A DNA stretch of 11,980 nt from a virus (taxonomy: Duplodnaviria > Heunggongvirae > Uroviricota > Caudoviricetes), in the IMG/VR virus record IMGVR_UViG_2537562191_000041, positions 1 to 11,980 of that record, one strand, 5' to 3'. Below the pieces are notes generated by a model. The model worked only from the letters and a program-made list of their open reading frames with translations. It was not told where the DNA came from and searched no databases. A program made the position numbers and the translations under genes. Shown in pieces: positions 1,622 through 7,026 of this stretch (positions within the stretch are counted from its first letter, which is position 1; every line of letters begins with the position of its first letter).

Positions 1622-2107
1622 ATGTCCGGTTTTGCAAATACAAAAGCCGATATGGCCTTTCTAAAATCCCGGTTTAATAAAAACCTGGCTGCAGGCGAAA
1701 AACTTATTGGTTCTGAATATTGGATGACCATTAAGGGTTACGAACATCTGTCTGTACTAGTTCGTACAGCTCAGTTACCAGAAATGACACGTGAAGATGT
1801 GGAGGATTACGCCCCTGGTGGCATGAAATTCAACCAGCACGGACCATTACGCAACTCTGGTGAATTTCAGGTCACATGCGCGGAAACTATCGAAGGCGCA
1901 GTTCTCGCCGCTGTAAAACAGATGGTATACGGAAAAGAATATCTGGAAATTACCTTACAGGCGGCGGCTGAATCGAATAGCGGTAACCATAAAGGTCTGA
2001 TCCGCACATATTCTCATTGCAAAGTGTATTCCGACGCCGTGGATTTCTCATCCGAAGACGTAACGGCGGTCGTTAAACTGAACCGCCCCGGAAATCCTGG
2101 AGACTAA
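1622..2107 (+). CDS. hypothetical protein whose native C-terminus has been replaced by an IS insertion; current reading frame runs about 10 codons into the IS left end
   Basis: ATG 1622 with AGGAG (1612-1616) at 5-nt spacing; the IS left inverted repeat begins at 2079 inside the ORF, so the final residues (LNRPGNPGD) are IS-encoded. Weak pattern resemblance to tail-tube-type proteins, not verified. Confidence 0.6.
2076..2078 (+). repeat. left copy of 3-bp target-site duplication (AAC) of the IS
   Basis: AAC immediately abuts the IS left end and is repeated at 3389-3391. Confidence 0.6.
2079..2105 (+). repeat. IS left terminal inverted repeat (IRL)
   Basis: TGAACCGCCCCGGAAATCCTGGAGACT matches the reverse complement of 3362-3388 with about 4 mismatches. 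Confidence 0.7.
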
Positions 2108-2132
2108 ACTCCCTGAGAAAGAGGTAAACAGG

Positions 2133-2459
2133 ATGACTAAAAATACTCGTTTTTCCCCCGAAGTCCGTCAGCGGGCGATTCGTATGGTTCTGGAAAGTCA
2201 GGATGAATATGACTCACAGTGGGCGGCAATTTGTTCCATTGCCCCAAAGATTGGCTGTACGCCGGAGACTCTGCGTGTCTGGGTTCGCCAGCATGAGCGG
2301 GATACCGGGGGCGGTGATGGTGGGCTCACCAGCGCTGAACGTCAGCGTCTGAAAGAGCTGGAACGTGAAAATCGTGAACTGCGCCGCAGTAACGATATCC
2401 TTCGCCAGGCTTCCGCTTATTTTGCGAAGGCGGAGTTCGACCGCCTCTGGAAAAAATGA
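2133..2459 (+). CDS. IS3-family transposase OrfA (helix-turn-helix / leucine-zipper part)
   Basis: 108-aa ORF starting [19 protein letters not shown], recognised from memory as the IS629-group orfA; GAGG Shine-Dalgarno upstream; ends within the A6 slippery run. Confidence 0.85.
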
Positions 2460-3346
2460 TGCCACTGCTGGATAAGCTGCGTGAGCAGTACGGGGTCGGA
2501 CCGGTATGCAGCGAACTGCATATTGCCCCGTCAACGTATTACCATTGTCAGCAACAGCGACATCATCCGGATAAACGCAGTGCCCGTGCGCAGCACGACG
2601 ACTGGCTGAAGAGAGAGATACAGCGCGTATACGATGAAAATCATCAGGTGTACGGTGTGCGTAAAGTCTGGCGTCAGTTGTTACGGGAAGGAATCAGGGT
2701 GGCCAGATGTACAGTGGCACGTCTCATGGCGGTTATGGGACTTGCCGGTGTTCTCCGGGGTAAAAAGGTCCGTACGACCATCAGCCGGAAAGCCGTTGCC
2801 GCAGGCGACCGCGTAAACCGTCAGTTCGTGGCAGAACGACCTGACCAGCTGTGGGTGGCTGATTTTACTTACGTCAGCACATGGCAGGGCTTCGTCTATG
2901 TGGCGTTTATCATTGATGTGTTTGCCGGATACATCGTGGGGTGGCGGGTCTCATCGTCTATGGAAACGACATTCGTGCTGGATGCGCTGGAGCAGGCGTT
3001 GTGGGCCCGTCGTCCGTCTGGCACCATCCATCACAGCGATAAAGGCTCTCAGTATGTGTCACTGGCCTATACGGAGCGACTAAAAGAAGCCGGATTACTG
3101 GCATCAACAGGGAGTACAGGCGACTCGTATGACAACGCGATGGCTGAGAGCATCAATGGTCTTTACAAAGCGGAGGTAATACACCGTAAGAGCTGGAAAA
3201 ACCGTGCAGAAGTGGAACTGGCCACACTAACGTGGGTGGACTGGTATAACAATCGACGATTGCTGGGAAGGCTGGGCCATACTCCTCCGGCAGAAGCAGA
3301 AAAAGCTTATTATGCTTCCATCGGAAACGATGATCTGGCAGCCTGA
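2456..3346 (+). CDS. IS3-family transposase OrfB (DDE catalytic domain); probably expressed as an OrfAB fusion by -1 frameshift
   Basis: 296-aa ORF in the -1 frame relative to orfA, overlapping at AAAAAATGA; contains the HSDKGSQY and [15 protein letters not shown] motifs typical of the IS3 DDE transposase. Confidence 0.85.
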
Positions 3347-3361
3347 GTTCACAGATAAAAC

Positions 3362-3388
3362 ACTCTCCAGGAAACCCGGGGCGGTTCA
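3362..3388 (+). repeat. IS right terminal inverted repeat (IRR)
   Basis: Reverse complement TGAACCGCCCCGGGTTTCCTGGAGAGT pairs with IRL. Confidence 0.7.
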
Positions 3389-3480: not shown

Positions 3481-4032
3481 ATGACACCAATTGAATTATT
3501 AGAAAGCGTTAAAGAGCGATTTAATCCGCTGCTTGTGCGTGAAGAAGAAACGTTGAAAGCATTCCTGATCAAAGCTCTGACCACGTATCAGGACAGGGCA
3601 GGGGTAGTGAAAACGTTAAAACTTGAAAAAGCTGGTGGTACTGCAATCCCGTTGCCAGAAGATTATCTCTCTCTGGTTCAGGTTACCGACAACAACGGCT
3701 TGTTGGTCTATTCGGATGAATTATCCGGATTTATTGAATTAGAACTAACAGGTTCAGAACGCTGGCCTTTTCGAATGCTGTATCTGGTTAATCTACGCGA
3801 CAGAAAGCTGGATGAATGGCAAGTGCCTCCTGCAATCATTGGAATGCTGGAGGAATATCTGGAGGCGCTTATCAATGTAAGAAATGTCGCCCGGCAGCGT
3901 AGAGCGTCCATCGACGGGAAATTTGACTACTCCGATCTGCCCGATGAAGCCACGCTATATGCCCGCGTGCAGGAGATTGAGGAAAAAATGTCCTCAAACC
4001 GGGCCATTATTCCGGGGGCTACCATTTTTTAA
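3481..4032 (+). CDS. hypothetical protein (183 aa)
   Basis: ATG ORF with a weak AGG Shine-Dalgarno; no recognisable motif; transcribed in the same direction as neighbouring structural-type genes. Confidence 0.55.
   Translation: MTPIELLESVKERFNPLLVREEETLKAFLIKALTTYQDRAGVVKTLKLEKAGGTAIPLPEDYLSLVQVTDNNGLLVYSDELSGFIELELTGSERWPFRMLYLVNLRDRKLDEWQVPPAIIGMLEEYLEALINVRNVARQRRASIDGKFDYSDLPDEATLYARVQEIEEKMSSNRAIIPGATIF
3630..3637 (+). other. Chi site (5'-GCTGGTGG-3')
   Basis: Exact octamer read on the + strand. Confidence 0.6.
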
Positions 4033-4047
4033 CGCTGGAGGCGCAGA

Positions 4048-4755
4048 GTGAGTATTTTCAGCAGCGTTGGTAGAACGTTGACCACCGCATTGTCATTTAA
4101 CACGAAATCATTCACCAGCAACCTCATTAGCGACATTCTTGATAAAGCCATATCAGGCGGCGGGGTAAGCGGGAATTACAGTAGCGATATTGCCTACGGG
4201 AAAAATATTGTTGCTGCCGCTATGCGTATCCGTTACGCCCAGGGGTGGCAGTGGACCGTTGAAGTGGATGGCCTGAACGGCTTCGATATGTTCGTGAAGG
4301 ATATCACCTACAGCAGTGGAAACATTGAGACAGAAAGCAAGGTGATCGGCAGCGTAGAATTCAGCAAGCCAACCTATGTTAGCGCCGGACCGGTCACTAT
4401 GACCGTGAGGGATACCGAAGATGGCAAGATCATGGACTGGTTCAAAGAGCGTCGTTCTCGTGTAACAAATCCTGATGGAACAATAAACCTTCCTCCTGAA
4501 TATCTGATGAAAATCCGTGTCTACCGGGTAACTCAGGACGGCGGAAAAGAACTGGAAGAAGAAATGCGCGTATTTCCTACGCAACTTGGGGAAATCACAC
4601 GCTCACGTGATCAGGTGTCAGAGTTCTTGTCATACCCAATCACTTTCCAGAAATACACATCCGCAGGCTCAGGTGTTTCTGCTTTGGTCAACGGTGCCGC
4701 GGGCATGGCTACAAGTGCGTTAAAGGGGGCTATCAGTGGAGTGATCAAATTCTGA
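4048..4755 (+). CDS. hypothetical protein (235 aa), beta-rich with Gly/Ala-rich C-terminus; GTG start
   Basis: GTG at 4048 preceded by GGAGG (4037-4041) at 6-nt spacing; ORF ends 12 bp before the first incA-like iteron. Confidence 0.6.
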   Translation: MSIFSSVGRTLTTALSFNTKSFTSNLISDILDKAISGGGVSGNYSSDIAYGKNIVAAAMRIRYAQGWQWTVEVDGLNGFDMFVKDITYSSGNIETESKVIGSVEFSKPTYVSAGPVTMTVRDTEDGKIMDWFKERRSRVTNPDGTINLPPEYLMKIRVYRVTQDGGKELEEEMRVFPTQLGEITRSRDQVSEFLSYPITFQKYTSAGSGVSALVNGAAGMATSALKGAISGVIKF

Positions 4756-4767
4756 AATGCTTTAATT

Positions 4768-4989
4768 ATGTGTGCTGTAGGGAAAGGTTTACGTTAAATG
4801 TGTGCTGCCGGGAAACCCCATTGCTCAAGATGTGTTGTAGAGGGAATGGTAATGGCAACATGTGTGCTGGAGGGGAATTTCGCATGTAAAGAGCGTCATT
4901 TATCCCGCCAGCACACATCTGAACTAAGCAATCCTCTGAAATTCCCTCCACCACACATCCAGACATGAAACTATCCCTTCAGCACACAT
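4768..4989. repeat. incA-like iteron array downstream of repA: seven copies of the ATGTGTGCTGnnGGGAA-type repeat, four in one orientation and three inverted
   Basis: Iteron cores read at 4768, 4798, 4830, 4860 (ATGTGTGCTG orientation, ~30-bp phasing; the third is degenerate) and at 4909, 4949, 4980 (CAGCACACAT orientation); the last abuts the repA stop. Confidence 0.8.
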
Positions 4990-5850
4990 TTAATCTGTTG
5001 GTTTAAGTTTCGGATTCCGAGAGTGAACGATAATGAAGTTTTCACGACCTTGCTTTTCAATGGTGCAATCGAGATAACCTATTGTTTTTAACTGTTCTAT
5101 AGCTTTTTTTATCGTTCTGTTTTGCTCACTTACCGATGACATCAAGGCTAATCTTTCACGTATTCTGGCAAATGAAATAGGTATTGGACGTGCCGGGAGG
5201 CTTTCTATAAAGGTATATATGGCCTGGGCTGCTTCTTTTTTAGGTAAAGCGCGAAGTGCGTGTTGCTGTAGAAGCACCCGATAGTCTAGCTGGAAGATTT
5301 CCCATAACTTGGAATCAGCCTCCAGTTCAACGACATCTGTTTCAAAGCCAAAATATCCCGTTTTAAGCAGGCCAGTATTGTAGCTTCCACGAGCACTTTT
5401 CCCTCTTTTGAATGAGATGCCTTTGTTGCGTAACCGACCTAAAGAATCGTGGATCGTGTTTCTTAATTTCCCATCAAGTCGCTTAGATGGAAATCCGCAC
5501 GCCTTTGCAAATTCTTGAAAAGAAAGGCGAATTGTATTCGATGATAAGCCATACTTGCTAAATGAGTAGATTACCCCAATCCAGACTTTGAAATCAGTAT
5601 CCATGTCCAAGCGAGGGCCAGTGATCTTGATGTTGTCGTAGCCTTCTGCTTGAGCTATTTCCAGTTTGGAAAAAACAGATGATGCATCTATCTCGTTGTT
5701 TTCACCCTGTTTTTTAGTTGGTTTAGGGACGAAAACACCAAGCCGCATAAGTGCGACAGGTTGAACAGTATTGTTCGAATTAACTGTTAATTCTTTAGCC
5801 TTGCTTTCAATGTCAGCATAAAGAATATCAGAGATAAATGACTTATCCAT
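4990..5850 (-). CDS. repA: iteron-binding replication initiator RepA, P1 / RepFIB family
   Basis: 286-aa ORF (from ATG at 5850; the ORF track starts one codon earlier at TTG 5853) flanked on both sides by repeats matching the P1-type 19-bp iteron; the N-terminus MDKSFISDILYADIESKAKE resembles my memory of P1 RepA. Confidence 0.9.
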   Translation of the reverse strand: MDKSFISDILYADIESKAKELTVNSNNTVQPVALMRLGVFVPKPTKKQGENNEIDASSVFSKLEIAQAEGYDNIKITGPRLDMDTDFKVWIGVIYSFSKYGLSSNTIRLSFQEFAKACGFPSKRLDGKLRNTIHDSLGRLRNKGISFKRGKSARGSYNTGLLKTGYFGFETDVVELEADSKLWEIFQLDYRVLLQQHALRALPKKEAAQAIYTFIESLPARPIPISFARIRERLALMSSVSEQNRTIKKAIEQLKTIGYLDCTIEKQGRENFIIVHSRNPKLKPTD

Positions 5851-5908
5851 CAATAAGTTACCGTCATGTTGTGAATAAAGTTTACGACAGTGGATATCCG
5901 GCTTTTTT

Positions 5909-6011
5909 TCCCGTCAGCACACATCCTACATCCCGTCAGCACACATGTAAAACCCTCCAGCACACATATTTTTCCCGTCAGCACACATCATTTTCCCTCC
6001 AGCACACATCT
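5909..6011. repeat. incC-like iteron array upstream of repA: five direct iterons at 21-22-bp phasing, probably containing the autoregulated repA promoter
   Basis: CAGCACACAT cores start at 5915, 5937, 5958, 5979 and 6000, all in the same orientation as repA transcription. Confidence 0.85.
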
Positions 6012-6055
6012 GAATAGTGGTTAAAGCCTTATGTGGCGCGGCCTGAAGAGCTACG

Positions 6056-6118
6056 GGATCTATTTGGTACTATATGGATCTAATCAGGATCTATATATTG
6101 GATCTATCCTGTGGATAA
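6056..6118. promoter_or_regulatory. oriR-like replication origin core: four GGATCTA heptamers (each with a Dam GATC site) and a consensus DnaA box
   Basis: GATC at 6057, 6077, 6088 and 6101 inside the repeated heptamer GGATCTA; TGTGGATAA at 6110-6118 is the reverse complement of TTATCCACA; an A-rich tract follows. Confidence 0.75.
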
Positions 6119-6204
6119 AAAAGAAGAATTACAAAGCTCCACCCAATTTCACACACTACCTATCCTCCAACGAATAAACAGACATCTGCTTATCGGAGGA
6201 ATAC

Positions 6205-7026
6205 TTGAACATTCCAAAATTCCCATTGCCTTCCCGTCCTGAGACAGAAATTCAGTTCCACGCCCCTACCGTGAAGGATGCGCTGAAATATTCTGACCTG
6301 AACCCGGCAGAAGATGAGGCAACTACTACAGAGTACCTTAACTCTATGCAGGATGGTGAAATTAACGACAGTGCTTACTGGACAGTCCAGGATCGCAGAA
6401 CTGCCCTTTGGTGGATATTTGTTAATTCGCGCCCCGATGCAGTAATGACTTACTCCTATGAGTGCAGTCACTGCGGTAATACGCATCACGCCGATATAAA
6501 CCTGAGCGATCTGGCTCAAACAGTAGAGATACTCACTGTACCGCCTTACGTAAAAACCAACGTACCGGTAAACGGTGTACCAACTGACTGGATACTTAAA
6601 CCATTAACCGGGAAAGGCGCGGAACTCCTTGAACGTATGCGTGCGTCACTTCCTGATATGAAAAGCCCTGAATACAGTGCAGGCGTGGCCCGTATGCGCA
6701 TTGCAGAACTCGCTTTATGCACGGCACTGGACGACGATCCGGAAGACTTCACTCAAGCAGCTAACCGACGCTTCGACATCATTGAAAGCATGGCGCTTGA
6801 AACCGAGTTTACACCGCTTGTGGCTCGCATACAGCTTATGCAAAAAGACCTACGCCACGGCCTGAAAATGTCTATTGAGAGAGGCACAAGCCGACTGATC
6901 CTGCCTCCGCAACATTGCAAAAACGCTAAGGAGGGTGCAGATGTGACAACCACACTGTACGTCCCCTTTCTCAATAGAGAGTTTATCCCATCAATTAGAT
7001 CTGAATGGATGGCTAACCATTATTAA
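6205..7026 (+). CDS. hypothetical protein (273 aa) immediately upstream of the tape-measure-like gene; possibly a tail assembly or accessory protein; TTG start
   Basis: TTG at 6205 preceded by GGAGG (6194-6198) at 6-nt spacing; the first in-frame ATG is about 47 codons downstream; contains a CSHC pair. Confidence 0.55.
   Translation: MNIPKFPLPSRPETEIQFHAPTVKDALKYSDLNPAEDEATTTEYLNSMQDGEINDSAYWTVQDRRTALWWIFVNSRPDAVMTYSYECSHCGNTHHADINLSDLAQTVEILTVPPYVKTNVPVNGVPTDWILKPLTGKGAELLERMRASLPDMKSPEYSAGVARMRIAELALCTALDDDPEDFTQAANRRFDIIESMALETEFTPLVARIQLMQKDLRHGLKMSIERGTSRLILPPQHCKNAKEGADVTTTLYVPFLNREFIPSIRSEWMANHY

Follow-up and report, generated by a model that had tools for sequence, protein, structure and literature searches.

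Analysis of the window, the whole stretch of 11,980 nucleotides examined here, indicates that positions 4767–4990 form an incA-like control locus, a seven-iteron array which is part of a plasmid replicon of the P1 family. We consider it very probable that this locus is the incA-type negative control element of a complete, IncY-like replicon of that family and that the replicon resides in a D6-like phage-plasmid. The array is real but ordinary, and the significance attached to it in a first-pass annotation of the same DNA was overstated. As far as mechanism is concerned, it confirms the P1 paradigm and does not challenge it.

The iteron array and the adjoining replicon

Direct reading of positions 4700–5000, together with a repeat finder, reveals seven 19-bp iterons of the P1 type within 4767–4990, a span of 224 bp (Table 1). 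Four iterons in the plus orientation are followed by three in the minus orientation, and this 4+3 arrangement of two opposed blocks, which the first-pass annotation had described, is borne out by scores of 17.5 to 28.9 bits for all seven sites. The scores were obtained with a weight matrix built from the 14 annotated iterons of P1 alone. Start-to-start spacing is 30, 32, 30, 42, 40 and 31 bp, the 42-bp step being the one across the orientation switch, which corresponds to 2.9, 3.0, 2.9, 4.0, 3.8 and 3.0 helical turns at 10.5 bp per turn. The three-turn phasing claimed earlier for the array holds for the first block and for the last pair, but the two steps of about 40 bp amount to about four turns. 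The third iteron had been called degenerate, and its core at 4830–4846 indeed reads ATGTGTTGTAGAGGGAA, which departs from the 17-bp core at three positions.

The pattern ATGTGTGCTGNNGGGAA, with up to three mismatches allowed, has 12 matches in the window against 0.40 expected. Seven of these matches are the incA sites and the remaining five are the origin iterons at 5907–6010; with the P1-only matrix, the twelve sites together range from 17.5 to 31.1 bits. It is extremely improbable that the repeats reflect chance or low complexity, or that the count of seven is an assembly artefact caused by collapsed units. Chance was rejected by the shuffle control, as none of 200 shuffles reaches 12 matches. 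Tandem units of about 31 bp can collapse in short-read assemblies, but the spacers between the iterons all differ, so that the units are not collapsible exact repeats, and the seven-copy array is present in several independently sequenced complete plasmids of E. coli and Salmonella as well as in two IMG/VR contigs.

The first-pass annotation had reckoned with cryptic iterons that would restore the P1 arrangement and so undo its reading. When extra iterons were sought with two matrices over the whole window and on both strands, no position other than the 12 sites exceeded 7.8 bits, and the region 4600–4766 reaches at most 6.5 bits (P1-only matrix). The array is therefore without cryptic extra iterons, and a count of nine was rejected on the distance between this background and the scores of the seven sites. 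A gene hidden in the array was likewise considered and rejected: the only candidate, a 66-aa ORF on the minus strand at 4766–4966, has no Pfam or PHROG match and consists of iteron sequence, while conservation among relatives does not extend to the spacers. For structured RNA, an Rfam scan of the window gives only the ALIL frameshift pseudoknot of an IS element at 2414–2530.

Table 1. Iterons, replicon elements and bordering genes in the window
Feature	Position	Strand	Sequence or type	Evidence and remarks
tub homologue	4048–4755	+	tail tube	PHROG 1842, E = 1.3e-98; convergent with repA; left border of the slot
incA iteron 1	4767–4785	+	TATGTGTGCTGTAGGGAAA	24.8 bits; most distal from repA
incA iteron 2	4797–4815	+	AATGTGTGCTGCCGGGAAA	25.6 bits
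incA iteron 3	4829–4847	+	GATGTGTTGTAGAGGGAAT	17.5 bits; degenerate copy
incA iteron 4	4859–4877	+	CATGTGTGCTGGAGGGGAA	25.5 bits; end of distal block
incA iteron 5	4901–4919	-	GATGTGTGCTGGCGGGATA	28.9 bits; opens proximal block, oriented as the incC iterons
incA iteron 6	4941–4959	-	GATGTGTGGTGGAGGGAAT	23.7 bits
incA iteron 7	4972–4990	-	AATGTGTGCTGAAGGGATA	26.7 bits; overlaps the repA stop codon
repA	4990–5850	-	286-aa Rep_3-family initiator	identity to P1 RepA, Pfam, PHROG 775
incC	5907–6010	-	five tandem iterons, origin-side array	iteron matrix and pattern matches
Predicted repA promoter	5923–5951	-	-35 TTTACA / -10 TAGGAT, sigma-70-like	within the incC iterons
GATC (Dam) sites	6057–6104		four, in GGATCTA-type repeats	stretch of 68% A+T
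DnaA box	6110–6118	-	TGTGGATAA	perfect; outer end of the origin
pmgB-like gene	6205–7026	+	PmgB-like	PHROG 1854, E = 1.3e-134; D6 orf41; right border of the slot

The array adjoins a gene whose product is 84% identical to P1 RepA over 283 aa. In Pfam this protein scores 27.3 bits for Rep3_N (cutoff 22.4) and falls just under the cutoff for Rep3_C (20.1 against 21.1 bits), and its counterpart in the E. coli plasmid pE2863-2 is annotated as replication initiator. At the DNA level, identity of repA to P1 is only about 71%. The proximity of this gene, together with an orientation, a spacing and an overlap with the repA stop codon that are the same as in P1 and P7, lends good support to the incA-like identity assigned to the array in the first-pass annotation.

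On the other side of repA, the five incC iterons start at 5907, 5929, 5950, 5971 and 5992 (spacing 22, 21, 21 and 21 bp), and one of them is identical to the P1 iteron consensus. The predicted promoter is offset from the first incC iteron by the same distance as the annotated -10 and -35 elements in the P1 record K02380. A DnaA-box-like sequence, TGTGAATAA, with one mismatch, is also present at 5870–5878, between the repA start and the first incC iteron. The P1 origin has been described with DnaA boxes at both ends. Judged from its sequence, the series oriR/incC, repA and incA is a complete P1-type replicon.

Variation of the incA array among P1-type replicons

The IncY plasmid prophage replicons of P1 and P7 (GenBank K02380, AF234172 and AF503408) served as references. 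Nine incA iterons are marked in the GenBank feature tables of P1 (K02380) and P7 (AF503408), in agreement with the earlier statement that P1 incA is usually described with nine. Our scan of these two replicons found six distal copies, spaced 31, 30, 31, 31 and 31 bp apart, and then three in the opposite orientation after 40, 41 and 31 bp. The likeness to the window is extensive. The 19-bp iteron consensus GATGTGTGCTGGAGGGAAA is identical, the final incA iteron (copy 9 in P1 and P7) overlaps the repA stop codon, and the three proximal copies are oriented as the incC iterons with spacing of about 40/41 and 31 bp, while the distal block is inverted, has a spacing of about 31 bp and contains a degenerate copy or two. 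The incA and incC arrays lie equally far apart in P1, P7 and the lineage of the window, with 935 bp from the last iteron of the one to the first of the other, and all share five incC copies at 21–22 bp with the repA promoter inside them, followed by GATC repeats and, at the equivalent position, a DnaA site.

However, the distal block consists of six iterons in P1 and P7 and of four in the window, so that the totals are nine and seven. The incA locus is accordingly 285 bp long in P1 and P7 and 224 bp long in the window, and the difference, which falls in the distal block, corresponds to about two 31-bp units. The window also has four GATC sites where five are annotated in P7, and the neighbour beyond incA is a tail tube gene, whereas in P1 it is the parA promoter followed by parAB-parS. 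The spacers between the iterons are unrelated in sequence to those of P1 incA. Alignments of the window to P1 and P7 by blastn start only at about 4974, inside iteron 7, and in a MAFFT alignment of the arrays only the iterons drive the match; a unit-by-unit homology with P1 incA was for this reason not adopted. The difference may reflect a loss of two units in this lineage or a gain in P1. Megablast against phages gave no matches, and blastn in a distant mode matched P1, P7 and Cronobacter phage JK004.

The first-pass annotation had treated the array as unusual for its copy number and its degenerate copies. Scored with the P1-only matrix, however, P1 incA copy 2 (GATGTGCGATAGAGGGAAG) reaches 22.1 bits and copy 3 (TATGTGCTGTGGAGGGATC) 18.4 bits, compared with 17.5 bits for iteron 3 of the window. 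P1 incA itself thus contains comparably degenerate copies, and degeneracy does not set the array of the window apart. The copy number was surveyed in 131 loci with RepA relatives, taken from GTDB genomes and IMG/VR and scanned with the iteron matrix. Among the 57 loci with a P1/P7-type RepA, 54 have three proximal and six distal iterons (3+6), two have 3+5 (L073 and L117) and one has 3+4 (L069). The loci of the window's own RepA clade, at 99% identity (L058 and L059), are 3+4 like the window. Two loci with RepA 94–95% identical to that of the window (L060 and L118) have eight iterons in a 3+5 arrangement, one at 93% (L061) has about 11 incA iterons, and JK004 has 5+3. Plasmids of Pantoea, Mixta and Enterobacter with RepA at about 70–75% carry irregular arrays of about 4–10 iterons.

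Within the lineage of the window the array is stable. It is unchanged in pE2863-2, the FDAARGOS_1059 plasmid, pB2C_96 and pAR-0407-2 of Salmonella Concord, and a 4+3 array with seven intact cores was found in all lineage members examined (pE2863-2, L137, L138, L139, L058 and L059). Outside this lineage, L069, L073, L117, L060, L118 and JK004 share the architecture of the window and have fewer distal units than P1, but their RepA and spacer sequences are unlike those of the window. Three of them (L069, L060 and L118) lie in a P1-like context in which the start of a parA-like ORF can be read from the alignment downstream. Replicons of the P1/P7 type and their close relatives have four to six distal iterons, and the range is wider in plasmids of the Pantoea group. 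Because the incA count is not constant even among P1/P7-type loci, nine iterons were not taken as defining, and the claim that the array is unusual is not supported. In P1-type replicons the number of distal units can be regarded as a labile character on a conserved scaffold.

The IncY plasmids of Pantoea and Erwinia (for example pPagL15_3; Fu et al. 1997, as cited in PMC10999674), whose RepA is about 72–75% identical to that of P1 and to that of the window, resemble the window in having near-identical iterons in groups on both sides of repA. They have been reported as incompatible with P1 (PMC10999674), and the Pantoea/Erwinia loci L006–L016 have five incC iterons and downstream arrays of mixed orientation. 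Unlike in the window, these downstream arrays are irregular, with 4–10 copies at a spacing of 21–113 bp, and the elements are ordinary plasmids while the window belongs to a phage-plasmid.

Two further arrangements were observed in the survey. In the IMG/VR record IMGVR_UViG_3300036817_000176 (L062), whose RepA is 88% identical to that of the window, the region downstream of the P1-type repA (3861–4345) has no 3+n array; its iterons form three head-to-head pairs 19 bp apart (3861/3880, 4089/4108 and 4308/4327), with iteron sequences of the D6 type interspersed, such as TTGAGGGCAATATTTACATC at about 3900 and GATGTAAAAATTACCCTCGA at about 4204. This control region may be a hybrid or an intermediate. 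In three other IMG/VR loci with RepA about 75% identical (L111, L112 and L113), the usual five incC iterons are present and the array downstream of repA is missing, while six added P1-type iterons (++++--) are located at 2507–2709, about 130 bp past the outer end of the origin. In these loci the control array has apparently moved to the opposite side of the replicon.

Proposed role in copy control and incompatibility

In P1, the array downstream of repA restrains initiation by sequestering RepA and by RepA-bridged pairing with the origin iterons, and it is a determinant of IncY incompatibility. P1 genetics has also revealed graded effects of incA deletions on copy number. P1 RepA controls initiation and copy number through two groups of 19-bp iterons, located upstream and downstream of repA, and the iterons determine IncY incompatibility (PMC10999674). 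Where iterons lie downstream of rep, they work through titration and handcuffing (PMC12361487).

For the array in the window, we infer RepA binding, an effect on copy number and incompatibility by homology. By analogy with P1, RepA monomers would bind the 19-bp iterons, and the five origin iterons would promote initiation and allow repA to be autoregulated. The incA array would lower the frequency of initiation by titrating RepA, but would act mainly by RepA-mediated pairing, or handcuffing, with the five origin iterons, both through looping in cis and between sister plasmids in trans. With iterons spaced by whole helical turns, the RepA molecules bound to them would all lie on the same side of the DNA. 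The presence of seven copies where P1 has nine probably represents natural variation by gain or loss of repeat units of about 31 bp. This difference probably raises the set point of copy number, though only slightly; sites scoring at least 23 bits with the P1-only matrix number six in the window and seven in P1, and the effect is therefore expected to be small. The natural series of seven-, eight- and nine-iteron incA loci on one architecture is a ready set for relating the number of control iterons to copy number.

The array would be expected to exert incompatibility on any replicon with the shared iteron, P1 and P7 among them. Since the consensus does not differ from that of P1, incompatibility with P1 should arise irrespective of the number of iterons, and the replicon of the window very likely belongs to the incompatibility group of P1. 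For plasmids whose RepA is only 72–73% identical to that of P1, experimental incompatibility with P1 is reported (PMC10999674). D6-like phage-plasmids of the window type, which occur in Salmonella and in E. coli (O111 and O22 strains of bovine and human origin among them), carry this IncY-like replicon. Incompatibility is therefore probable towards prophages of the P1/P7 type and also towards PACs and other vectors derived from P1. Typing by nucleotide identity may miss such a replicon, as its repA is distant from that of P1 (about 71%) and MOB-suite gives only rep_cluster_2221.

The D6-like host element and its tub–pmgB slot

Gene content and order identify the host element as a D6-like (P1-g2) phage-plasmid with the replicon in the slot between tub and pmgB. 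Positions 4700–6200 are 99.9% identical over 1,501 bp to pE2863-2, a plasmid of 92.9 kb. An 81-bp stretch comprising the 3' end of tub and the flank that follows it is 91% identical to D6, in which the corresponding orf43 is annotated as major tail tube protein, and other flanking genes of the window include by PHROG a PmgC-like gene and a gene for a 1216-aa tail injection transglycosylase. The D6-type synteny was found in the window, with sheath, baseplate and tube genes leading to the replicon and then to pmgB and sit, in the order of D6. Next to incA, parAB is absent and the tail tube gene adjoins instead, because in the D6 subgroup (P1-g2) replication and partition genes are reported to be separated (PMC7969092). 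An adjoining parAB-parS belongs to the genome of P1 and not to the replicon as such, and without an adjacent parAB any coupling of incA to a par promoter region would be absent here.

D6 (MF356679) also has its replicon in this slot and in the same orientation, and there too five tandem iterons form the origin upstream of rep and further iterons, in both orientations, are scattered downstream. However, D6 uses a Rep of its own (orf42, about 251 aa) and an iteron of its own, TGAGGGCAAATCTTACACC; neither an orf42 homologue nor D6-type iterons occur in the slot of the window, which is occupied by the P1-type repA cassette. Among 87 plasmids from complete E. coli genomes that match the end of tub, similarity extends across the P1-type replicon in only seven. 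In the remaining 80 it ends at about 4782, and the one of these that was examined, pKOr024_2, has a D6-type Rep. The left junction of the cassette with the D6-type plasmids therefore falls within incA iteron 1: D6, pKOr024_2 and about 80 other D6-like E. coli plasmids match the window past the tub stop codon (4755 to about 4782), through the iteron 1 core that they have in common with it. The right-hand junction of the D6-type cassette would be at about window position 6140.

The position of this junction bears on how the array came to have seven copies. It is possible, though we regard it as somewhat unlikely, that the array is an incA truncated with no adaptive meaning, two distal units having been lost when the cassette was captured or recombined beside tub, with the distal copies partly dispensable. 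Iteron 1 begins just 12 bp past the tub stop codon and contains the junction, and the nearest RepA relatives in a P1-like context with parA downstream (L060 and L118) have eight iterons, all of which is consistent with such a loss. On the other hand, the 4+3 array with intact cores recurs throughout the lineage, and the P1-proper locus L069 reached 3+4 without a tub junction. Truncation is moreover a matter of history only, and is compatible with the control function that we favour for the array.

Just past tub, D6 (L135, 5066–5107, or about 46,925–46,966 of MF356679) and pKOr024_2 (L136, 2668–2709) carry TATGTGTGCTGGAGGGTTG and, 23 bp later, the inverted copy CGTGGGTGCTGACGGGAAA, which has the GACGGG form that occurs here otherwise only in incC copies. 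These two iterons look like relics of a P1-type replicon that was replaced by the D6-type cassette; alternatively, the head-to-head pair could be a functional site. They are the only P1-type iterons left in D6, at the left edge of the slot, and the pair is apparently also kept in about 80 D6-type plasmids. As relics, they would record a replacement of the replicon within a cluster of phage structural genes, and the evidence for such a replacement in the tub–pmgB slot is the most interesting by-product of our analysis. A more far-reaching proposal, which we consider quite unlikely, is that the slot is a site of replicon exchange whose left junction lies in a P1-type iteron and in which the D6 relics serve in cross-talk or as patches for swapping. 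If the relics bound an IncY RepA, cross-talk with co-resident P1-type prophages might result, either as weak incompatibility or as handcuffing in trans. They could also be patches of homology for swaps of replicon cassettes, and on this view the incA with seven iterons would show, still intact, a locus that D6 has for the most part lost.

The replicon, with flanks at 4755–4990 and 6119–6204, lies inside a run of plus-strand genes (tub, then pmgB and sit), and a crude consensus scan detected nothing resembling a terminator between tub and the convergent repA (4755–4990). Late transcription may therefore read through incA, through repA in the antisense direction and through the origin. In such a setting the RepA-bound array could be imagined as a roadblock or insulator between tub and repA, with copy control being secondary. 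The two genes converge on the array, and the surrounding tail and morphogenesis genes all read in the plus direction. Nevertheless, we think a roadblock very unlikely: P1 and P7 have the same architecture although their incA faces the parA promoter region and not a late gene, so that it is independent of this setting, a consensus search for terminators is crude, and our data hold no sign of roadblock activity. Negative control of replication remains the preferred role.

Elsewhere in the window, an IS3-family element of 1,309 bp is located at 2079–3387 and is absent from pE2863-2. It carries orfA (108 aa, 2133–2459) and orfB (296 aa, 2456–3346), Pfam HTH_Tnp_1 and rve domains and the ALIL pseudoknot mentioned above, and its size and ORF lengths recall IS629. 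The element breaks the last 35 bp or so of a bplB-like baseplate gene (1622–2107), with a 4-bp overlap or duplication at the junction, and the prophage may be defective through this insertion.
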